64,000 nucleotides of DNA, taken from assembly GCA_951406725.2 (NCBI GenBank), contig OX597817.1:33356001-33420000 (forward strand). Direction: 5' to 3'. Below, in pieces: positions 4,391 through 64,000 of this stretch. A program made the translations under genes and the position numbers. How positions within the stretch are numbered: the first letter of the stretch is position 1; every line of letters begins with the position of its first letter. The notes below the pieces were generated by a model that worked only from the letters and a program-made list of their open reading frames with translations, was not told the DNA's origin and searched no databases. This DNA is from Octopus vulgaris. Its lineage: Eukaryota.

Positions 4391-5190
4391 AAGTGGTTGG
4401 GAAGTGACCTTCTAAGCCACAGAACCAAGCTTGCAACTGAATGTAATTTTTAAAACGAAAAAAAAAACCATTCATATTATCACAATATTTTCTGAATAAA
4501 TATCAAAACTTTTTTTTAAAATAGAGGATTATAATCAAAATAACACCTACACACTATTTAAACCTGAGTTTACTGTACATTTTGGTTTTAAAAAAAATAC
4601 CAACTGAGAAATATCTAAATTGTGAACACAAATTTTACTCTGTCAAAATCTCTACAAAGTTTGATAAAGTCCTTGTTTTCACTGACAAATGAGAACTATT
4701 TACTTTGTGGTTTTATTTACACAATAGATGATTAGCTGCATGAACCTCTCAATACAATTAATTTCACTTAATGAAAGATTGGATAGCAAAAAAAAAAAAG
4801 CAAATACTAATGATCAGCAACAGACTCACCTACTGCGAAGTCAAGAATATATAAAATTACAGGCATTATATTCTTTGATGGCTATTACCACTTGTCTATC
4901 GTGTTTGTTGCTCTTCTTTTTGTTAACTTGGATTACAAAGCTATAGTTACTCACCATATACCTGACTCTGGCAACATATAAAGTACTTAAAAGGTTTAAT
5001 GATTTGAGAATTTGTATGTGTTTTATTTATTATTATTATCATCATCATTATTATTATTATTATAAATTTAAGTATCAGATTTATTTACTTTTCTCACAGA
5101 GAAACACCTACCTCCTTTAGTCATTGTATTTTTACAGAAACCTAAGGGAACAAAACTGTTTAGTTTCATCAAAATCAAGGCTGTACTTTC

Positions 5191-5822: not shown

Positions 5823-6581
5823 CTAGCAGTATCGCCCGGCGTTGCTCAGGTTTGTAAGGGAAATAACTATAAAGCATTTTTAGAGAGTTATAGCCAAAAA
5901 ATAGAAAAAAAAATGATGGTAAATTTTTTTTGAGAGTTAAAACAGGTGGAGTTGCGTCCCCTAGACGGTCTGTGGTTTGGGTTTCTCATTCTCGACCCCA
6001 TGTCGAATTTATCGATTTTTTTCAGAACTGGGGAACTTTTCAAAATTTTCGCTGCGTTAGTTTTGAATTATGACATTGGGCTATGTGTGTGTCAAGTTTC
6101 ATCAGAATCGGTTGAAAGCCGTGGTCAGAGTGAGGGTACGAGAAAATAGACACACAGAAACACGCACAGACAAACTGCCGTTTATATAGAGAGAGATAGC
6201 AGTATCGCCCGGCGTTGCTCAGGTTTGTAAGGGAAATAACTATAAAGCATTTTTAGAGAGTTATAGCCAAAAAATAGCAAAAAAATGGAAAAAAAAATGA
6301 TGGTAAATTTTTTTGAGAGTTAAAACAGGTGGAGTTGCGTCCCCTAGACGGTCTGTGGTTTGGGTTTCTCATTCTCGACCCCATGTCGAATTTATCGATT
6401 TTTTTTCAGAACTGGGGGAACTTTTCAAAATTTTCGCTGCGTTAGTTTTGAATTATGACATTGGGCTATGTGTGTGTCAAGTTTCATCAGAATCGGTTGA
6501 AAGCCGTGGTCAGAGTGAGGGTACGAGAAAACAGACACACAGAAACACGCACAGACAAACTGCCGTTTATATAGAGAGAGA
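5823..6581 (-). mobile_element. Non-autonomous Helitron-like element, head-to-tail dimer (5823-6196, 6197-6581)
   Basis: Minus strand starts TC and ends CTAG, with a GC-rich subterminal hairpin (CCTGAGCAACGCCGGG). Inserted between A (5822) and T (6582) with no TSD. Two near-identical ~375-385 bp units. Confidence 0.75.
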
Positions 6582-6614
6582 TTTCACTTTAATTTATTTA
6601 TTTTATTATTATTA

Positions 6615-8680: not shown

Positions 8681-9609
8681 ATTGGGACAATCAATTGGGA
8701 GAGGAAATATCTATGTATATATGCTATAGAGTATAGTTGGTTAATTGCTTTCTTATGTGTGAATATCATTACAGCAATCTGTGCAATTATTATAAACTCG
8801 CAAGAATTATTTCTTAGTGCATTATTTAATCAGTGGCAAAAGTGGCTAATTTAATATCGTATCAGAAGATTACCGATTATTGTATCACAAGTTCACACCA
8901 TGATGTAAATAACTATTACATTGCACTTTTAGCTAAAACATTTAATTGTGGTCTCTTTAGTCTATGAAGATAACTTTATGATAGAAAAGTCTAGCAATAA
9001 AAAAACAAAGTAACTTCATATAGGAAGATGTACTTATTTTCTTATGCTATAAAATAACCAGTTCTACAGGTGTTACATCTTACTTGCCACAAGCCTTGGT
9101 CATTGGAGCTATATATTGATATAACTTAGGAGAATATAAACCTAACCTGGCACATGTAATATTGTAAATAGTTTGTTGGATATTTTTGTAAGATATTGCA
9201 TGCTGTTGAAATATTTAGCAATTCGGTGCTTTCTACTTCCATCTATATAACTTTTTTCTATCTGCTTATCTCTCTCTTTCACTTCTCTCACCTTCTACTA
9301 ACTGATATTTTGACAGAAATAAATTGCATCTAGGTGAATAAAGGATAATTTTTTTTTATGCTTTCATATGAATATGAAAGCTTTATTGGGGAGAATTGAG
9401 CAAGACTGAGATGGGTAATGTTATTTGAAAGAATTACATAAGTTTAGCTGTTTGGTTAAGAAGTTCACTGGTTTAGTCCACCTGCACAATGCCATGTATC
9501 TTAGGCAAGTACCTTCACCTATAGCTTCATGTTGATCAATATCTTTTGAATGGAATTTGGTATACACAAACTTCAAAAAGTTTGCTGTATGTGTGTGTGT
9601 GTATAGTGA

Positions 9610-22649: not shown

Positions 22650-23183
22650 TTCAGAAAAGGAAAAGTATCACCAACAGCATGTGTATAGCTACATAAAGAA
22701 AATATGGACAATGTAACATAAATATGTAATAAAAAACGTCATGCATCCATGATGATGCACCTGAGACAAATCATGAGCATTCCATAGAACTACATGGTCA
22801 GAAACACTCATTCTAGAGAAAGCCTAACTTCTTAGAATGGAAGAGATATTAGTGTAGCAAAACCTCTGCTGATTTAGGTTTGTCCAAAGATTGGAAGAAA
22901 CCTGGTTACTTAGACAAATTCTCTTTTCACAGTTGTCTGATGTGCATATGTGTATAAGGTGATGAATTGGCAGTTGTTTGGAACAAAAGTATTGTAGGAA
23001 AAGAAAAAAAATTGCCCAGGCTTGCATATATGTAGATGAAAGGTTAGCCTTGATGAACAGAGACCACACCATTTTGTGTGTATATATGTGTGTATGTATT
23101 TGGATACATGTAATTATTTCATCTTATTTTCTTTATTACAGGATTGAATAGATGAACAGTTAATATCAACTGGAGCAGTAACT

Positions 23184-23471
23184 ATGGCTAACTCCACACC
23201 AAGCACTAATGGTGCTACCAACCCCTATTGTATAAAATCAGACAGCAATGGATCCTGTTCAGGCCTGATTTTACCAATTCTTAATGAAGATGCCTGGCCT
23301 TTAGGGTTCCGTGCATTTGTATACTTGCTAGGATTACTTTGGTGCTTCTTGGGTGTATCGATTATTGCTGATACATTTATGTGTTCCATTGAACGCATTA
23401 CAAGTAAAACCCGTAAGATCAGAGTGGCCGACAGCAGCAAACCGAATGGATTTCATGAAGTTGAAGTGAAG
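23184..23471 (+). CDS. Na+/Ca2+ exchanger (NCX/SLC8-like), first coding exon (exon likely starts at 23142)
   Basis: MANST...SGLILP...RAFVYLLGLLWCFLGVSIIADTFMCSIERITSKTRKI...EVEVK matches the NCX TM1 region. Acceptor ttattacAG at 23140-41, actATGG start context, donor AAG|GTAATT, phase 0. Confidence 0.93.
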
Positions 23472-26711: not shown

Positions 26712-27138
26712 GTATGGAATGACACCGTTGCCAACCTCAGTCTGTTGGCTCTTGGTACGAGTGCTCCAGAAATATTACTGTCTGTTATTGAGATTCTGGG
26801 TAATGGTTTCTGTGCTGGTGCTCTTGGACCATCAACCATTGTTGGTTCAGCTGCTTTCAACTTATTCGTCATATCTGGTATCTGTATCATGACAATTCCA
26901 AACGGTGAATTCCGACGCATCAAAAGTATGCGGGTGTTTGGTATCACCTCATTCTTTTGCCTTTTTTCTTACATGTGGCTTGCCATTGTTTTGCTAGCCA
27001 GTAGTCCGAATGAAGTGGAACTGTGGGAAGCTATTGTGACTTTCCTCTATTTCCCACTTCTCATCCTTATTGCCTATTTGGTTGACCGGAAGTGCTGTAT
27101 TGAGGATAAATCCACAGGAATTTATGAAATAGCAATGG
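26712..27138 (+). CDS. NCX exon: alpha-1 repeat and TM2-5
   Basis: VWNDTVANLSLLALGTSAPEILLS...LGPSTIVGSAAFNLF...VELWEAIVTFLYFPLLILIAYLVDRK. Acceptor catttAG, donor ATGG|GTAAGA. 427 nt, phase 0 to phase 1. Confidence 0.97.
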
Positions 27139-30075: not shown

Positions 30076-30090
30076 CACCAGAGGCAAAAG
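30076..30090 (+). CDS. Candidate NCX microexon, 15 nt (APEAK)
   Basis: gctaat branch-like site, pyrimidine tract, then caacAG|CACCAGAGGCAAAAG|GTAAGC. Symmetric phase 1, no stop. Confidence 0.7.
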
Positions 30091-33122: not shown

Positions 33123-33404
33123 AAAGTTTTCAGAAGGACTTCTAACAGCAAATGGCACAAAGGATGCACAAAGAATAGATAAGTTCATAGTGAAACCTGC
33201 CTATAACATGTCTTTGATTTCTGGCAGGTCATTTGGCTTCAGTTATGTTACTATTACTTTTGTAAAGTTTTCAGAAGGTCTTCTAACAGCAAATGGCACA
33301 AAGGATGCATAAAGGATAGATAAGTTCATAGTGAAACCTGCCTATAACATGTCTTTGATTTCTGGCAGGTCATTTGGCTTCAGTTATGTTACTATTACTT
33401 TTGT
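33123..33404. repeat. Tandem duplication, 2 x 141 bp
   Basis: 33123-33263 and 33264-33404 differ at about 3 positions. Confidence 0.95.
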
Positions 33405-33808
33405 AATAGGCATTAACTTTATACCATTACATTTCTTTACTTTATTATAGTTAGGTACACTTGTACATTTTAATAAATTAATGATAAATATATTCATATT
33501 TTTGTTTCCCTAAGCTCATGAAATTTTAGTAGCTACTTTTTCCTTCCATAATATTTTGATTTGCATCTTAAAATTTATGTTTGTTTTAAATTAAAATTTT
33601 TAAGTAAAACTCCTGAATGTAAAGGTTTTCTAGAGAAATTTCTGACAACAAAAATATCATTACGAGACTTGTGTATATTTTGTCTTTATTTTTTCACTTG
33701 TTTGCTGTGTCACTTTTCACTTCTTCCAAGGAAATGTTCCCCACCTACCACTCCTAACAGGAATGAGATTTTTTATATCTGTTTTAAAGATTAATGTTGT
33801 TATTTCAG

Positions 33809-33823
33809 TTGATGCACCAAAAG
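33809..33823 (+). CDS. Candidate NCX microexon, 15 nt (VDAPK)
   Basis: ttaatgttgttatttcAG|TTGATGCACCAAAAG|GTAAAT. Symmetric phase 1, no stop. Confidence 0.65.
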
Positions 33824-36011: not shown

Positions 36012-39000
36012 GAATGTGTATGTGTATAGTTATATATAAAACAGGCTTCTTTCAGTCTCCATCTAGCACTCACAAGGATTTGGTCAACTCAGGGCTATTG
36101 TAAAAGCCACTTACCCAAGGTGCCATGCAGGGGAACTGAACATAAAACCATGTGGTTTGACTCCTTACCACACAGCCATACCTGTAAACATTGTAACCAA
36201 TTGCAACAGGAAATATTATCTAAAATCTGGTTCCTGAAGTTAATCCAACTGAAACGATCTTTGGTTCCAAGAAACAAAATTTTTCATTTTAAACTGTTTG
36301 TATTTAGACTTAAATCTTCCATTGTCGCTTTATGTAAGAATTGTTTGTTGAATTCCAAACACCAGCTTAATTATCATTGAATTATTATTTTACTAATTGT
36401 TTCCCAATTTTTAAATTTTAGAATTTTTGGATGCACACAATATATTCCAATAGTAATATGATACTGAAAAGGTTAAATAACTTTGTGTCAGAGTAGTAAA
36501 AAAAAAAATCAGTTTTCTGCTTTAAAAATCAATCTAATATCGAACTATTAGAGTAGAGGTAGGAAGGAGAGAATTTGTTTTCAGACAAGATGTCATTTAC
36601 AACATAAATGTATTTTTCCAAAATGTATAAAATTTGAGAGATTACAAACCTGCTTTAGTGTTATGCATTACTATGAAAAATAAGGTCTTTAAACACTCTT
36701 TTACTAATATAAAGTATATCCTTTAAAGCAGATCTACAGAGTGTGTATTTTCTTGGTTTCCTGCAATCCAAATGATGCATTCAAATGTGACATCCCATCA
36801 GTATTTTACACTTGCTTTCCAGTTATCATTGCCCGAGTCAGTTCTTATTGAGTTGCTCTTCCTCTACATGGGCAGTGGAGTATGTCTCGCATGTTTTTGA
36901 CATGGTTTCTATTGCTAGATACCCTTTCTAACACCAATTTGAATGAACTGAAATTTTACAAGCGCAAACGTTTCAAAGTTTAAGATATAATGTCAATGAA
37001 GTCTCTAAATTCATTAGCTATAATGACTGTGCCTGCTAGAAATAGCAGTCAAACTTCACTCAAATATCATTATTAAAAAGGACAGATTGAATACTATACT
37101 TCTATATATACTGCCTGAAAAAAATTAGATTATCAAAAGCCATTCCAGCTGTGGCCATCCAGTCTAAGTACAGTTACTTGATATTCCACTTAAAGTTTGT
37201 TTTTTCAGCTTATGAACAAATTTGAAAAGGCCAGCTTTGTTGAAGAAGCTTATATTTGGTATTGGATGTAGTTTTGTCTAATTATTAGGAATAAGGCCTA
37301 AATGCTAAATAAATAGTCAACGTATTGGTCACTGTGTTGTATCTTATAGTAACAAGGCACTTTCTTTTGTTTGCTTTACTTGAGGTGGCACATTAGTGGA
37401 TTGTGTTAAAAGAAAATACCACAGTGGACTATACTTTTAATAATTCACATGCTTTTAATGTATTATTGAGTGCCAATGAAAAGAAAAACAAAAAGAAAGA
37501 AAGAAAAAACTTATGAATTTCATAACAGTTTAGTGAAATCATCAAAACTTTGAAGTGCCATCATTCAGAATTGAAAGCATGAAAATAATTATGGTATATT
37601 TCTAATTTTGATGGTTTAAATTTTCTGAAAGTTATAAGTACCTGAAGATGTTTTCTTCTTGAGAGAGACATTTGAGATTTTAGAAGTGAATGAAGCTTTG
37701 CTTATATCTTAATGGCAGATTTCTCTATCTTACAGTTCTATCTGCATTTTCCGGCTATCTCTCTCTCTATATATATATATATATTTATTTCTTTTTTATT
37801 TTGCTCAAACACTTGTAAAGCTATCTCTTCATTACTAGAGCTTTTCTCATAATTTATCACTGTTTACTGTCTCCCTAAATTGCTTCTTCTTTCAATTATT
37901 TTGTTTTTCATTTGTAGTAGAATAATTTCTTTTTATTCACTTTCTCTCTAGCTATTTGACAATGTGAACTCCATTAACTTTCCTTTCAAAACCTTTCACT
38001 AGATTTTTCTTTACATATTTCTATATTACTAACCTTTCTTTTATATGAGAGCTGAAATGTAATAGAAGAACATGGAGCATCTAATAGGGTTCAGTTTTCC
38101 TGTCAGATATCCAAAATTTATTTTTTATATTCCACGTTAAATTGGATTTCAGTTTCCTAAATATTTCTCCATTTTTCCTTCTACCTTGAGTTTTCTTTTC
38201 TAAATTTGTCTTGGAGCAAGTGGTTTGTTTTCTAACTCGTATCTAGAGTATTCAGATCAAACTATTTAAAATGAAATATTTTTTATAAGAACAGTAGTAA
38301 GGCAACCACTTAATTCTTAAAATTTCTATCATGAAGAACAATAGTATTTTACCTTAAGGATTTTTCAAAATTGTTCCTGTATTGTTTCAGCTTTTATCTA
38401 ACTGCATAGTACAATTCCTTAGCTTTGTTTTATATATATATATTTAGTTAAACTTTTTATTTTTTATTTAAGGTAATTTTTTTCCTAAACTTCTACAAGC
38501 AGTTAATATTCTTTCAATTTAACTCACTATTTGAAACAATTCTTATCACCTTTTAATATATCTTTATAAATTGATCTTTCTAACTTTTTAACAAATTCTC
38601 AAAACTTTCTCTTAGTTCAGATGACATATTTGAAATTATTCTTTGAAACCTCTGAATATGTCCATATAGCTCTTACTAAAATCATCTCTCATAAATCTAT
38701 TATCAATGCTCATTCTCAATTGTTCTTAATAGATTTTACCTGAATTTTCTTCTTAACCCTTTGCCTGTCTGTTGTATCACAAATAATACATATTTTTCTG
38801 GGATCCATGCATTATATATGATATGAATTCCTAATTTCTTTCAACCACTAGAGTAACTTGGGATTTATGTATTACTAATAACATATGAAACAAAGAATAA
38901 CTAGAAGTCTGAAAAGAAGCATGACTGTTTAGGACAAATTTATCGAAATGCTTTGGAAAGGCAAAAGGTTTAACTTCCCCAAAATTAACATTGTAGATAC

Positions 39001-39154: not shown

Positions 39155-39172
39155 ATAAACAGCTTAGCAAAG
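39155..39172 (+). CDS. Candidate NCX microexon, 18 nt (DKQLSK)
   Basis: Very long pyrimidine tract (~39070-39150), then ttgcttcAG|ATAAACAGCTTAGCAAAG|GTAAGC. TGC just upstream of the acceptor. Phase 1, no stop. Confidence 0.75.
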
Positions 39173-41031: not shown

Positions 41032-43660
41032 ATATATGTATATATATAAATGCATATATATAGATAAAGGTATATATAGCTGATCTAGCAGAGAAGCCAA
41101 CGGCCAATGGATTTAGGGTCTGAAGAAAAACTGCAAACCTATATCTGTTTCAGCATCTTCTCTGCATTTTTTACACTTGTTTATGGTATATTTTTATACT
41201 TATAATGAATCTCTTCATATATATATATAATGTGATGGGTATAATCAGTTTAACTAACAGCTGAGTTGGTGATGGGCACAAGCCATTTAACTATCAGCTG
41301 AGTTATAACCTTCAACCAGACAAATTATTCTGCTTGCTTTAGCTTACCTAGCTTGAAAATGAAACACATTATCATGAACAATAGTTCAGTCGTTTATCTC
41401 TTTTAGGGCCAAGTGATATATTTTATATTAGTCATCGCATTCTCATCTCTATGTGTATCTAATTATTTTTAATTATTTTTATTTAAATGAAGGTTAATTA
41501 AACTTTGAATTATACGGACGTTAAAATAAAATGGTGAAATTTATCATTTGTGTTCTGCTGGATGGTTGACTCATCTTCACTCCTCCAAATCTCATGAAAT
41601 AAGTACCAGTAATTTATCGGGGTTGAATCAATTGACTATTACCTATAAGCCCCACTCTACAAATTTATAACTTTATTCAAAAGCCAGAAATCTAGTATAA
41701 ACATATATGGACTGCAAAATATACTAATATAAGATAGCAAATCAAATATTGAAGAATAATATATTTACAAAATATATATTTGAAGAGTAATATACAATAT
41801 TTACAAAAATAAAACAAAATGTTTACTATCATCATTGATACAAGTCCATTTGTAGCTGTGCACCTACAAACTCCCCAGGCTACACATTTTTGATTGAAAG
41901 GTTAACTAAATGTTTCATCAGATATTAAATGTTTTCTGTTGTAGTCTTGTTGTTATAACTTACTGAATATTTAAAATAAGTTAAAGGTTTGTCTACCTTA
42001 TTCTTATTTGTTGTTGTTTTTTTGATAAAGTACTTTGTTTCTAATAATCAGACTACAAACTAGTAAGTTAAAAGAAAGTGCCACAATTGAGTTTTTTAAC
42101 CATTACAATAAAGATACCTGAAAGCAAAAATCCTTACAGCAAAAATTATGCCAAAAGTGGTTAAGTGAAAATAAATATTGCAAATTTTTCTATGGCAAAA
42201 ATATCTAACATGAAAGTTAAAAATTGTTTGTCATTTCAAGAAGGTAATTGATTTACACTAACTGGTGTAATCTGCTCCTGCTGAGTCTTGCATGTCCAAC
42301 CACAGTATTGAACCAGTATAGTACACAGGCATTTCCAAATTATGCAAGTATTGCATTCAAATGCAAATTTTCCCTAACATGATTCTGTAATAAAAAGCTT
42401 ATTTTTTTCCCCATCTATTTCCATATTGAATGTAAGTTAATGACAAAATGTTTTGCATTATAGGCAAATTTAAAGGCAAAATTTTTATGACCACAAAACT
42501 TCTGCAATACCAGAAATATTGGGATACTATAAATTTGTATTTTTACATTTTGTTATAAGAACAGAATAAAATATACATGCATAATTATCGTAGATATTCA
42601 ATAAATATCAATTGATAGAAATATGATAAAAGATAGCTAATAATGATTATAAATGACTCCATTAGCAGACAAACATAAAAAAGAAAAGACAACTTGAAAC
42701 GGTAAAATAGGTATACACTGTACCTCCATGTCCAAGAACCACCCCATTTCTGTATCTGATTTGGATTAATTTTTGCTGACTCCCAGGTTTTTTGATTCCA
42801 GATTGTACCTGGTAATATTATTTTTATACATTATATAAATATTATTGTATTTTCTGATTTCTTAACAATGAAAATGCAATTTTTATTTAATTAATTGCAT
42901 CTCTGAAACAAATTTATTTTTCATCTTATATTGAAATAAACAAGAAAAAGATTTTTGGCTGTTCAAAAGTTTATGGAAATACAATCAATGATAGTGTTTT
43001 GGTAGATTCATTTAAGTGTTGGACAAAATGCCTTGCTATATTTGTTCTAGCTCATTATATCATGAGTTCATATCCTGCCAAGGTGAACGTTGAATTTAAT
43101 TTTTCTAGGGTCGATATAATTTAGTCTCTGTCTAGGGTGGTGGGACGATAGAATTATTAGAGCATTGAACAAAATATTTTGCACTGTTTGTCCTGACCCT
43201 TTTATATTTTGAGTTCAGCTTCAATGACACTAGTAATGAGTCATATCAGCCCTTGAACAATGTCACTAGAATCGAGGAAAGAAGACTTATTATATGAGTA
43301 AATGCTTGTGTCCAGGAGGGAAACTATCCCTGTGTAGATTAGATGGGCAACGCTAACCAATAGAGGCCTTATGTGAAAATAATTATACATTTACAAGATT
43401 AATTAAAGGTTACATTAGAATTAAAAGTGATGTATGTTAGCAATTGTAAACCTGTCATTGGTCAATATATTTTAAAATAAACACTTCAGCTTAGTGGCAA
43501 CACTTTTTGACTAAATGTTTAAGGTCAGACAAAAAAATTTGTTTGTTGCTATTTATATTTTGTTATAAGTTGAATATCTGTTCAGTAAACAGATATAATT
43601 TTTCAGTTCCTTAAACTAATAAATTACATTTTCAACTGTTTCTCTGTTCCTTTTAAACAG

Positions 43661-43663
43661 TAG
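43661..43663 (+). other. Candidate 3-nt microexon (adds Val) or recursive splice site
   Basis: actaat branch (43615-20), pyrimidine tract, then aaacAG|TAG|GTAAGA. Confidence 0.5.
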
Positions 43664-44442
43664 GTAAGATACATTTACAACAGAGCTTTTGAAGATTTAA
43701 TACATTTTTTTAGGTTTGATGGATGTTAAATGTTAGAAAGCAGCATTGATTTATGGTTTTTGTTTTTTAATATTTGTGTTTGTCCCTTGCAACATTTTTT
43801 TCAGCTCATTTGATAAACAGAACCAATAAACATCAAGCATGTAACTGTACCTAATTAGTTTACTGAGAAATGAAGTGTAAATGAAATTGTTTATCAATAT
43901 TGTAATGTGTTGTCTTCTAAATTTGTGTTGCTGCTGATGTTTTTAAAAGGCTTTTATTGTCGCTTATAATATCAAGGTTCTAATGTGTTAAGTTTCAACA
44001 CAGTGTAGTCAAATAATTTGTTTTTAAAAGTGAAAGATGGTAAAAGATAGAAATTCTTCCCTAACTTTTATACATTCTAAGAACTCCAAAGAACTGTAAA
44101 AATTGCTTATGTGAAATACTTCTTTTTTTTTTTTTATTATTGCTATGTGTAATCTTGTTTGTTTTAGATTATCCCCACAAGAATAAAATTGTTTCCTTCG
44201 AATATCTTTATATTTCTGCTATTGGTAGGAATATATTTTAGCAAACTAATATGTCACATTGGATTCAATCTTTACTACAAAGTAAATAAGAACTGCCAGA
44301 CAAGCTTAAATATCATCATCGTAATGAAATAATACCAGTCATTTCATTTTACTCATATTTTTAATAACTTGCCAATTCTAAACCTTTACATAACAGAAAG
44401 TTAACAACAAAAACATTTCTTTTCAAATTATTTTTATTTTAG

Positions 44443-44516
44443 GATCAAAGGGATCAGAAGAAGAACCTTTGGACAAACCTGAATCCACGGAAGAAAATGT
44501 GTTTTTACTTGCCAGA
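44443..44516 (+). CDS. NCX exon, acidic linker (GSKGSEEEPLDKPESTEENVFLLAR)
   Basis: tttttattttAG acceptor and AGA|GTAGGT donor. Its 74 nt convert phase 1 to phase 0, exactly as needed to join 27138 to 47452. Confidence 0.85.
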
Positions 44517-47451: not shown

Positions 47452-47619
47452 GACCTTGCTCGTACACAAGATATTACTCAAACAGATGCTGGCCGTTTAG
47501 CTGCAGCAACCCTTGCTGAACGTCAGAGCCATGGGAGAGGATGGTATCGTATCAATGCCAATCGAAGTATGACTGGTGGTCAGAAACTTACACCAATAGT
47601 TATGGAAGCTTTCAAAGAG
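47452..47619 (+). CDS. NCX exon, helical segment before CBD1
   Basis: DLARTQD...LAERQSHGRGWYRINANRSMTGGQKLTP...FKE resembles the NCX KSRAFYRIQATRLMTG motif. tttatAG acceptor and GAG|GTAACC donor. 168 nt, phase 0. Confidence 0.92.
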
Positions 47620-49300
47620 GTAACCTAGATAACTAACTTGATGTCTCTTATTTACTCCTTGTTAAATGACTTCAGTAATCAAATTTTCTTTTCAAAACTT
47701 AGTGCAGCATGCAATGTGCCAGCATGGCCACTGCCAACTAGTTGAAACCAGTTAAAATAACGTCATTACAAGAGAAAAAAAATTTATGAAAACTGCTTAG
47801 TATGAATTGTGCCAGAAATTACCGTTTCAAAATTTTGCCATTGTTTGATGTTAAACATGTTTTATATATGTTTTTTTTTTATTTTGCTTTTCAAGAAAAG
47901 AATTTAAATAATTCCACAATTTTTATAATATTGGTTTCTTAAGAATGGAGTCAATGTTTGTAGGAAAGTAATGTAGTTGACTCAGTTAATTCCAGAGCAT
48001 TGTGTGTATACTTTTGTTTTTGCTTTTCTTTAGAAGGATGGAAGAGAAATTTAATAGTGCAATTCATATTCAGAATAGAGCTGGAGAAAACTAAATGCTG
48101 CAAAGCAGTTCATATCAACTAATTCTGCCAATGATAACTGCATTTTCATTTTTCCATTATTGAAGTTTGCAGAATATATTGCAGAAACTGTTGAAAATCT
48201 TTACAGTATTTAATTTTATCCACTTATATTCTGGGATCAAATCCTGCTTATTTTCCCTTTATTTTGCTGGGCTAGTAAGATAAATTTCAGTTATATATGT
48301 TGTTTGTAATATTACTGATTATATTATTAAAACTGACTTTGTTACTAAGAAACCAATATTGACCACATTAGCTTGTGCTTATGGAAACTGCTGCATGCTT
48401 GTTTTTATTTTAAATGAATGTAGAAAGTGGAGGGGATAGTTTTTTTGTTTTTTTTTACTAATGGAATTCGAGAATTTTAAATATATTTTAACTGGCTTGT
48501 TAAATGTCACAGGTAAGCTTTCAATAAGCCAAGAATATAAACTAGTTTCAGTTCTGAGCAATTATTTCACTTTGCTCATTATTTCAATAACTCTGAGAAA
48601 CACCATACAATCTTATTTCCCTTCAGTTTTAGATATGCCTTTGAATATGTATTTATGTGAGAAATCAGTGAATAATGATTTAGCAATCACTTAGTGTATG
48701 TAGACTTTTCCCTTCTCTTGTCACAAAAGAGAAACTAGGAGTAACATTAAATGAATGAGTTGAATATTATTTTCAATTATGTTCACTTTTAGATGTAATG
48801 TAGTTTTGCCATTTAGTTTCCCATCAGTAGGAGAACTAAATGTTTATCACTTGATTTCTTTGGGTGACATGCACCTCCTTTAGGATTTTTAAGAAAGCAA
48901 GAAATACAGATTGTTGAACTCAAGTATTCTTAAAGCATTTATAATGTAAATGAAATGAGTGAACTACAACTAGGAATAAAAGCTGGGAACTTATCTGACT
49001 ATGTAAGAATATCTTTATAATTTCCAGAGTGGAGAAATTACAAATGAATTTTATTTAATTCTCTTCTTTAAAACAGATCCAATACTAATCTTTTATTTCT
49101 CATTGAGGATTATTTAAACATTTTTTACTATCTTTGTAGTCTGTTGCCCTTTCATTTTTTATCATATTGCTCAATCATACAATTATGTAATTTCTGTATG
49201 TGTGCATGTATATATAATATAATTTCTCTCAGGTTCCATAAATGTATGTATATACTATATTTTACGTAGTTTTTTCTTTTTTTCTCTTTTTTGTTTTCAG

Positions 49301-49321
49301 GCTGGTAGTAGATATAGGGAA
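49301..49321 (+). CDS. Candidate NCX microexon, 21 nt (AGSRYRE)
   Basis: ~30-nt T-rich tract, then ttttcAG|GCTGGTAGTAGATATAGGGAA|GTATGT. Symmetric phase 0, no stop. Confidence 0.6.
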
Positions 49322-51891: not shown

Positions 51892-51915
51892 ATTCAGGAT
51901 GAGCTTTCAGCCAAG
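51892..51915 (+). CDS. Candidate NCX microexon, 24 nt (IQDELSAK), with an alternative in-frame acceptor giving 18 nt
   Basis: cttttattaaatgcAG|ATTCAG|GATGAGCTTTCAGCCAAG|GTAAGC. Phase 0, no stop. Confidence 0.72.
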
Positions 51916-53715: not shown

Positions 53716-54999
53716 TTGGATTGTCCGGAAAGTTCGTGCCGATTTATGGTAGCATACCTTTCGACTTATTTTAGAACATTGTTGAGTCCATAAAATAGGA
53801 TTTAACTACACCTCCATTTAGAGCACAGTTTAAACTATATTTTCGTGGAAGAAGGTTTATGTTCCTATAACCTGTGTTAATTCTGTAACCCTTTAAAATG
53901 GAAGATAAGAAAGTTCATTTTCAGCACTTGATGCTTTTCTTTTTCCGTAAAGGGAAAAATGTCTCACAAGCAACCAAAGAAATATGTGCAGTTTACGGTG
54001 ATGTTTCTTTATCTGAAAGAACTGTACAGAAGTGGTTCGCAAGGTTCTGAGTTGGAGATTGTAGTCTTATTGATAAAGAGCAATCAGGCAGACCATCCAC
54101 TACAGATGATGGCCAAATCAAGTCATTAATTGAAAATGACCCACATTGCACAACCCGAGAATTGGCAGAAAGCCTCAACCTATCAAAATCTGTCATTCAT
54201 GAGCACCTGGTAAAGCTTGGGTACACAAATTGCTACGATGTTTGGGTACCAGACGAATTGAGTGAGAAGAACCTTTTGAATTGCATTTCCATCTGTGATT
54301 CGCTTTATAAACGGAATGAAAACGCACCTTTTTTAAAGCAAATTGTGACAGGTGACGAGAAATGGATTATCTACCGAAATGTTCCGAGAAAGCGATCCTG
54401 GAGTAAGCGACATGAGCCACCCTTAGCCACCCCAAAAGCGGGTCTTCACCCTAAAAACGTCTTGCTTTGTGTCTGGTGGGATTGGAAAGGAATTCTGTAC
54501 TATGAGCTTCTCCCAAGTAACCAGACAATTTATTCTGAGAAATACTGCACACAACTAGATGAGTTAAAAGCAGCAATTCAAGAGAAACGTCCAGAATTTT
54601 TCAACAGGAAGGGTGTTGTTTTCCAACATGATAATGCAAGACTGCATGTTTCTTTGGGAACCAGACAAAAATTGCTTCAGCTCGGCTGTGATGTGTTACC
54701 CAACCCTCCATATTCACCAGATATTACTCCTTCGGATTTCCACTTATTTAGGTCTCTGCAGAATAGTCTTAATAGTAAAAATTTCAATTCCTTGGATGAC
54801 ATAAAAAGATACCTTGATGAATTCTTTGCCATGAAACCACTTCAATTCTGGGAAGAGGGTATTTTCAAGTTAAAGGAAGGATGGAGATGCATTGTGCAAC
54901 AAAATGGTTCATATTTGGTTGATTAAAAATGTAAAGGCAAGCATTTATTGACCTTTTTCTTTCCTTTAAGAATCGGTACAAACTTTCTGGACAACCCAA
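53716..54999 (+). mobile_element. Full-length mariner (DD34D), 1284 bp
   Basis: ~30-bp TIRs and TA TSD (53714-15, 55000-01). Confidence 0.95.
53898..54926 (+). pseudogene. Mariner transposase, 342 codons with one premature TGA (54048-54050)
   Basis: Single frame from MEDKKVHF. Motifs WVPDEL, VTGDEKW, FQHDNA and YSPDITPSD, with 34 residues between the 2nd and 3rd catalytic D. Confidence 0.93.
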
Positions 55000-63131: not shown

Positions 63132-63154
63132 TTATATATATATATGTATGTATG

Positions 63155-63197
<43 letters not shown>

Positions 63198-63202
63198 GTA
63201 TG

Positions 63203-63284
<82 letters not shown>

Positions 63285-63312
63285 TGTATGTATATGTATG
63301 TATGTATGTATG

Positions 63313-63343
<31 letters not shown>

Positions 63344-63368
63344 GTATGTATATGTATGTATGTATATA

Positions 63369-63401
<33 letters not shown>

Positions 63402-63422
63402 ATGTATGTATGTATATGTATG

Positions 63423-63455
<33 letters not shown>

Positions 63456-63872
63456 ATGTATGTATGTATATGTATGTATATATATGTATGTATGTATGTA
63501 TGTATATGTATGTATGTATATGTATGTATGTATATATATGTATGTATGTATATGTATGTATGTATATATATGTATGTATGTATATATATATGTATGTATA
63601 TATATATATATATATGTATGTATATATATATATATGTATGTATATATATATATATGTATGTATATATATATATATGTATGTATATATGTATGTATATATA
63701 TATGTATGTATATATATATGTATGTATATATATATGTATGTATATATATATGTATGTATATATATATGTATGTATATATATATGTATGTATATATATATA
63801 TGTATGTATGTATATATATGTATGTATATGTATGTATGTATGTATGTATGTATATGTATGTATGTATGTATG

Positions 63873-63918
<46 letters not shown>
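63132..63918. repeat. Compound (TA)n/(TATG)n microsatellite, ~790 bp
   Basis: Directly visible. It explains the four low-complexity ORFs at the window end. Confidence 0.98.
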
Positions 63919-63921
<3 letters not shown>

Positions 63922-63922
63922 T

Positions 63923-64000
63923 GTGGAGGCACAATGGCCCAGTGGTTAAGGCAGTGGACTCGCTGTCGTAGGACCGTGGTTTCGATTCCCAGACCGGGGG
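63923..64000 (+). mobile_element. SINE tRNA-like head, truncated by window end
   Basis: GTGGAGGCACAATGGCCCAGTGGTTAAGGCAG...GGTTTCGATTCCC matches the copy at 55630. Confidence 0.8.

Follow-up and report, generated by a model that had tools for sequence, protein, structure and literature searches.

A candidate 3-nt cassette microexon in the microexon cluster of an Octopus vulgaris sodium/calcium exchanger-like gene

Introduction

Near the 3′ end of a 17.3-kb phase-1 intron in an Octopus vulgaris exchanger-like gene, two acceptor AGs follow one another directly and abut a donor (CAG|TAG|GTAAGA). Is this arrangement an exon of three nucleotides, a ratchet point of recursive splicing, or a chance assembly of splice signals? 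The first-pass annotation of the window (the whole 64-kb stretch of DNA analysed here) had proposed either of the first two. Our analysis leaves the microexon half of that proposal plausible, given three cassette neighbours in the same intron, and the ratchet half poorly supported. We give an even chance to the reading that positions 43661-43663 form a 3-nt cassette microexon missing from the annotation, which would close a series of four phase-1 microexons between the coding exons E2 and E3 (Table 1). The probabilities attached to this reading, to a chance origin and to a ratchet point are judgements and were not computed.

Table 1. Positions of the coding exons, microexons and candidate splice signals within the 64-kb window.
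Feature	Positions	Strand	Basis
E1, first coding exon of the Na+/Ca2+ exchanger-like gene	23184..23471	+	97/97 residues identical to P0006
E2, alpha-1 repeat to TM5 and XIP-equivalent segment	26712..27138	+	phase-1 end, donor GTAAGA
Cassette microexon A, 15 nt	30076..30090	+	peptide identical to that in annotated isoforms, flanked by AG and GT
Cassette microexon B, 15 nt	33809..33823	+	peptide in O. sinensis isoforms P0007 and P0008, AG/GT flanks
Cassette microexon C, 18 nt	39155..39172	+	match to annotated isoforms
Branch-point-like ACTAAT (CUAAY type), branch A at 43619	43615..43620	+	sequence inspection, predicted
Polypyrimidine tract, 25/31 pyrimidines, one TCTC/CTCT, no TGC	43624..43654	+	base counts
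Proximal acceptor CAG, purine (A) at -4	43658..43660	+	sequence inspection
Putative 3-nt microexon (TAG, coding one Val), doubling as distal AG of the tandem acceptor	43661..43663	+	splice-signal scan, translation
Donor GTAAGA	43664..43669	+	7/9 matches to donor consensus, same as annotated microexons
Downstream intron segment, 779 nt	43664..44442	+	coordinates
E3, 74 nt, own acceptor TAG (44440-44442)	44443..44516	+	protein match
E4	47452..47619	+	protein match
Cassette microexon D, 24 nt, 3′ of E4, in the second variable region	51892..51915	+	isoform match

Host Gene

The open reading frame at 26712-27140 matches the Pfam family Na_Ca_ex (PF01699, E 6.7e-16) and shows 100% identity to O. vulgaris and O. 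sinensis proteins that bear the name sodium/calcium exchanger 3; E1 and microexon C have the O. vulgaris residues. Full-length matches to the product of the gene contain both PF01699 and PF03160, and the octopus protein matches human NCX1 chains (E 7e-153). By this predicted domain content, Na_Ca_ex transmembrane repeats together with Calx-beta domains, the host gene falls within the SLC8/NCX family. No constitutive coding exons beyond E1-E4 were found within the 64-kb window. Before E1, a CAG preceded by a pyrimidine tract ends at 23140 (region 23110-23183, plus strand), which suggests that an untranslated exon probably lies upstream of the first coding exon.

The octopus protein shares 36% identity with fish NCX2b, as compared with 58% between squid NCX-SQ1 and NCX1 (PMC2217150); judged from these identities rather than from a tree, it is probably another paralogue and not the orthologue of NCX-SQ1. 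In human NCX1, residues 219-248 after TM5 are described as the XIP strands, the hub of Na+-dependent inactivation, followed by a long disordered loop (PMC10550945). The octopus segment in the corresponding place (27080-27138, plus strand) lacks the vertebrate NCX XIP sequence with its basic and aromatic residues and aligns poorly to XIP, so that its equivalence is positional only. Given no vertebrate-type XIP sequence, Na+-dependent inactivation may be different in the octopus paralogue.

Microexon Cluster at the E2/E3 Junction

Annotated isoforms of the exchanger differ by short inserts exactly at the E2/E3 junction. The microexons A, B and C are all phase-1, all lie in the 17.3-kb E2-E3 intron and are combined variously among the annotated isoforms; the candidate site lies 4.5 kb 3′ of C. 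Among the proteins examined, the peptide of microexon B occurs only in O. sinensis, yet the exon is intact in the O. vulgaris window. All four annotated microexons, D included, terminate in AAG|GT. When isoform P0008 was modelled with AlphaFold2 (68 sequences, mean pLDDT 74.2), residues 224-284, which comprise the cluster and the insertion point, followed the TM5 helix and had pLDDT <50.

Inserts at the same E2/E3 position are also found in relatives from Haliotis, Babylonia and sea urchin, among which same-species isoforms are represented by three Babylonia proteins and a Haliotis pair; we count these inserts in favour of the microexon reading. Exon length within the cluster varies between relatives, as seen in the 5- and 6-residue inserts of P0011 and P0012. 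Such variation would fit a candidate that is what is left of a degenerate microexon, once longer, or a relic of the cluster in the form of a tandem acceptor, mostly silent now; splice signals are all that the candidate has in common with A, B or C, it is not in a self-repeat, and we regard this origin as very improbable. We also asked whether the 5-residue insert of P0011, which ends in Ala, might represent a C-version of the 3-nt exon; the idea was set aside because the insert aligns equally simply with microexon C.

Several other splice-like arrangements were observed in the window. A CAG inside D (51895-51897) could give an 18-nt in-frame variant (score 17.2 by the weight matrix described below), and the 5-residue cassette that follows D in P0003 and P0009 was not found within the window. 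In the intron after E4, CAG|GTAAGC at 48510-48518 (plus strand, region 48457-48518) has a CUAAY 52 nt upstream, a 38-nt AG-free zone and a weak tract (58% pyrimidine); it may be a candidate of zero length, or it may serve as donor for an exon missing from the annotation. Two further high-scoring acceptor-donor pairs on the plus strand are without protein support, one of 25 nt or 0 nt (38448-38478) and one of 21 nt whose tract is very strong and whose donor is weak (49301-49321).

Composition of the Candidate Site

Inspection of the letters upheld most of the initial description of the site. The branch-like ACTAAT and the CAG and TAG acceptors abutting GTAAGA are all present, with the branch A 42 nt 5′ of the first candidate exon base. 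A pyrimidine-rich tract is present too, although the length first given for it, ∼35 nt, is slightly generous: 15 of the 16 core positions (43639-43654) are pyrimidines, and the whole 37-nt span between ACTAAT and CAG holds 25. The tract lies inside an AG-free zone of 52 nt 5′ of CAG. The next exon had been placed ∼780 bp further on, in agreement with the start of E3 after an intervening 779 nt. Translation likewise confirmed that use of the first AG in this phase-1 intron adds 3 nt, and hence one Val, with no stop; the frame was kept in all three inclusion combinations translated. At 95.5% of the length of the intron, the site thus has the flanks expected of a cassette microexon (≤27-30 nt): a branch, a tract and an AG acceptor before it, and a GT donor after it.

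The surroundings of the site are unremarkable. RNA structure around it is nothing special (z -0.38), it lies outside any self-repeat, and its flanks are not unusually repeat-free, 52% of random positions doing equally well in this respect. About 25% of the window is self-repeated, and the window includes tandem duplications of 141-nt and 385-nt units and a 790-nt TATA/TATG microsatellite (33123-33406, 5824-6582 and 63133-63924, respectively). An intronic open frame of 291 codons (54051-54926, plus strand) matches Pfam Transposase_1 (E 1.7e-26) and HTH_24, and by its motifs we take it to be mariner-like; four other repeat-like fragments gave no Pfam match.

The signals, the frame and the cluster are properties of the DNA itself, whereas for the order of splicing and the choice of AG we draw on mammals and flies. 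On that footing, U1 would bind GTAAGA and the short 779-nt intron would leave first, joining TAG to E3; the upstream intron would be removed next, with 43619 as branch point and CAG, the first AG, as acceptor, leaving one Val just before the Gly-Ser-Lys at the E3 start. Use of the second AG, or skipping of the site, would yield the annotated protein. Human NAGNAG acceptors favour the proximal AG, a preference that grows when position -4 is a purine and when the branch lies further away (PMC3250501). The candidate has both features, an A at -4 and the 42-nt distance, so that by these human data CAG should win over TAG and give 3 nt rather than 0. Downstream-first splicing is reported for 58% of human SRRM4-dependent microexons (PMC10250204). 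Such a route would suit a 779-nt intron and would avoid the competing out-of-frame donor that upstream-first joining would form one base upstream (6/9 matches, vs 7/9). Inclusion would probably be partial and tissue-restricted, with neural tissue a guess by analogy. Since a low-confidence loop would receive the Val, the protein is probably affected only slightly; a single Val may do little where the loop is flexible.

We rejected the idea that the same Val might come from a NAGNAG at the acceptor of E3 itself, which has no second AG. The acceptor of E3 does bear on how the exon might be sought in transcripts. TAG followed by the first E3 bases already exists in unspliced RNA, and the search first proposed, for reads with TAG inserted before E3, is confounded because E3's own acceptor is TAG. 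With an anchor in the upstream exon, a TAG read can be assigned to one place only, because the plus strand of the E2-E3 intron has a single AGTAGGT.

Comparison with Chance

Splice-like signals also arise by accident, and the site may be a decoy (pseudo-exon) in an AT-rich intron, ignored by the spliceosome or used at noise level; we hold this to be a substantial possibility, if somewhat short of an even one. The candidate was chosen by eye out of 64 kb, which favours such an origin. A strict rule was applied that combined YAG, an AG-free zone of at least 30 nt, at least 70% pyrimidine, a YTRAY branch and GTRAG within 30 nt; both its thresholds and those of a relaxed rule were fixed after the values of the candidate were known, and the resulting figures flatter the candidate. 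Across the 64 kb the strict rule gave three plus-strand matches (C, the candidate and D) and one on the minus strand, thereby recovering two of the four annotated microexons; the relaxed rule recovered three of the four among nine matches. The other plus-strand matches of the strict rule are therefore real microexons, and there were none on the antisense strand of the gene span, which argues against a decoy, as does the fact that the candidate preserves the frame, is free of stops and sits inside a microexon-bearing intron.

Block-wise dinucleotide shuffles of the E2-E3 intron produced a strict match of ≤3 nt in 4 of 150 cases with 200-nt blocks and in 0 of 150 with 1-kb blocks, and strict matches of any length averaged 0.17 per shuffled intron. 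The relaxed rule is more favourable to a decoy, with 1.6-1.9 pseudo-microexons per shuffled intron and a match of ≤3 nt in 18-22% of shuffles. A weight matrix was trained on the seven acceptors and eight donors of this gene, with the candidate excluded. It ranked the candidate 10th of 761 plus-strand pairs and 5th within the intron, and four minus-strand pairs and two unannotated pairs in the same intron outscored it. Intron shuffles scored at least as high as the candidate in 30 of 200 cases at ≤3 nt and in 61 of 200 at any length. A CUAAY branch accompanies only 8 of the 90 YAG sites with an AG-free zone of ≥30 nt in the same intron.

The motif YAGNAGGTRAG was observed three times in the window against 0.46 expected, and its two additional occurrences, which lie 5′ of the gene and outside it on the minus strand, again speak for a decoy. 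These YAG-NAG-GTRAG motifs (4825-4835 and 9287-9297) may reflect chance or an unknown antisense gene. Depending on the test, the chance expectation is 0 to about 0.2 per intron, and the candidate stands above chance only moderately, a result that is suggestive and not decisive.

Protein Evidence

A Val before the E3 start was present in 0 of 11 cephalopod-type proteins spanning the junction (the 11 with the E3 start among 170 proteins), another point in favour of a decoy. These 11 are the representatives of clusters with 50 members, and the count covers the representatives, with the other 39 members outside it. A search for the Val form among shorter proteins was negative for all 352 candidates, and a search of 50%-cluster representatives returned 50 matches with no close relative over the junction (best 9e-12, identity ≤56%). 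Nine of the 11 proteins are annotation-derived, and the two others are just 75-77% identical. Common aligners are reported to miss exons under 8-10 nt (PMC7821500), so that for the nine annotation-derived proteins the absence of Val is weak evidence; by the same reasoning, loss of tiny exons by aligners would account for the absence of the candidate from annotation. Counted against the 3-nt microexon are the lack of a Val protein, the 15-30% chance obtained with the weight matrix, which equally favours a decoy, the lack of UGC (discussed below) and the competing out-of-frame donor that an upstream-first route would bring.

Recursive Splicing

If the site were instead a ratchet point, upstream exons would join the second AG, GTAAGA would be regenerated and the product re-spliced to E3, leaving no trace in the mRNA. 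We judge this improbable, even though AG and GT are juxtaposed (43662-43665) behind a branch and a tract, just as in the Drosophila ratchet points and RS-exons described for Ubx, kuz and Bx (PMC8605326, PMC6110457). The regenerated donor, with 6-7 of 9 matches, would be as good as the native donors, and the first segment from E2, 16.5 kb, is near the 9-15 kb segments of flies (PMC6110457). AG|GT is nevertheless expected anyway for a 3-nt exon with a consensus donor; as such an exon ends in AG, the string NAG-NAG-GT is no separate sign of recursive splicing.

In its placement the octopus site differs from those of flies, where single sites fall about halfway along the intron and almost every segment is longer than 1 kb (PMC6110457); here the site is close to the 3′ end and only 779 nt remain. 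Recursive sites are reported in 63% of fly introns over 40 kb, a class to which the 17.3-kb octopus intron does not belong, and shorter recursive introns exist too (PMC6110457). Fly ratchet points are also described as requiring a cryptic RS-exon donor downstream (PMC8605326). The octopus site is without a clear one, the candidates at +177 (43841) and +618 (44282) being weak and the only two. Furthermore, the ratchet AG would be the second of two and would compete with an AG 3 nt upstream that human data predict to be the better. The site therefore has the AG|GT of a ratchet point, and lacks both a mid-intron division into multi-kb segments and an AG that should be the one chosen. The native donor of E2 and the proposed ratchet junction are identical over the first 8 intronic bases, so that short reads cannot separate the two.

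The site might also serve both purposes, which we likewise think unlikely. Removal of the 779-nt intron first would create a regulated NAGNAG on E3; were the upstream intron to leave before it, by way of the second AG, the site would be a ratchet, the order thus setting the presence of Val. If true, a ±Val switch would end a combinatorial microexon cluster adjoining the inactivation segment of the exchanger. A literature search found no paper on cephalopod recursive splicing or on cephalopod 3-nt exons.

Implications and Comparison with Known Systems

If the 3-nt microexon is used, it would add an unannotated dimension to the isoforms of this exchanger, with up to 16 combinations of four cassettes in the loop after TM5, and if it is real, cephalopod annotations overlook the smallest exons. 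The surprise would be modest, the kind being well known and the three larger cassettes being in public protein annotations already. No paper on the microexons of this gene was found in a search to which bioRxiv supplements and most subscription papers were out of reach. The main text of one preprint (bioRxiv 10.64898/2026.09.05.749416) has three mentions of octopus and none of SLC8 or exchanger; its supplements may list octopus microexons.

Among known microexons, those dependent on eMIC/Srrm234 or SRRM3/4 in neural tissue are an obvious point of comparison (PMC8797185; 10.1101/2024.09.17.613571). Fly eMIC exons are described as having an extended zone free of AG, a branch of the CUAAY type, a tract with UCUC, and UGC (PMC8797185). 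The candidate is alike in its AG-free zone, 52 nt as against 25-40 nt at the acceptors of E2, E3 and E4, in its CUAAY branch (branch A at -42), found at 0 of those 3 constitutive acceptors, in its strong donor, and perhaps in UCUC, of which the tract has a single TCTC/CTCT at -20. It differs in lacking the UGC typical near the acceptor, with none in the last 30 nt or 60 nt. In mammals, UGC is reported for 74-79% of SRRM3/4 microexons and is not strictly needed (10.1101/2024.09.17.613571).

Exons of 3 nt have precedents in mouse Ncam and Drosophila troponin T (PMC8042270), in RPS24 (10.1101/2024.12.24.630263) and in cytohesin-1/2, where a diglycine/triglycine difference of one Gly switches lipid binding (PMC6314551). 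Each is a one-codon, in-frame exon with its own acceptor and donor, as the candidate would be; those exons have been seen in mRNA, and the octopus candidate is known from genomic signals. The cytohesin exon is, moreover, conserved and lies in a ligand pocket, in contrast to the predicted disordered loop (pLDDT <50) that would receive the Val in octopus. After downstream-first splicing, the candidate would also resemble a NAGNAG acceptor (PMC3250501), presenting CAG/TAG on E3 with a difference of one codon; unlike such acceptors, its tandem AG lies 779 nt from the exon body in the genome, and the acceptor of E3 itself is not a NAGNAG.

At the level of the gene, the closest parallel is with exons A-F of vertebrate NCX1 (PMC2408596, PMC2217150, PMC10550945), small cassettes that diversify the cytosolic loop as those of the octopus cluster do. 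The vertebrate exons lie in the C-terminal part of that loop (CBD2), whereas the octopus cluster, to which the 3-nt microexon would belong, comes right after TM5 and the XIP-equivalent segment.
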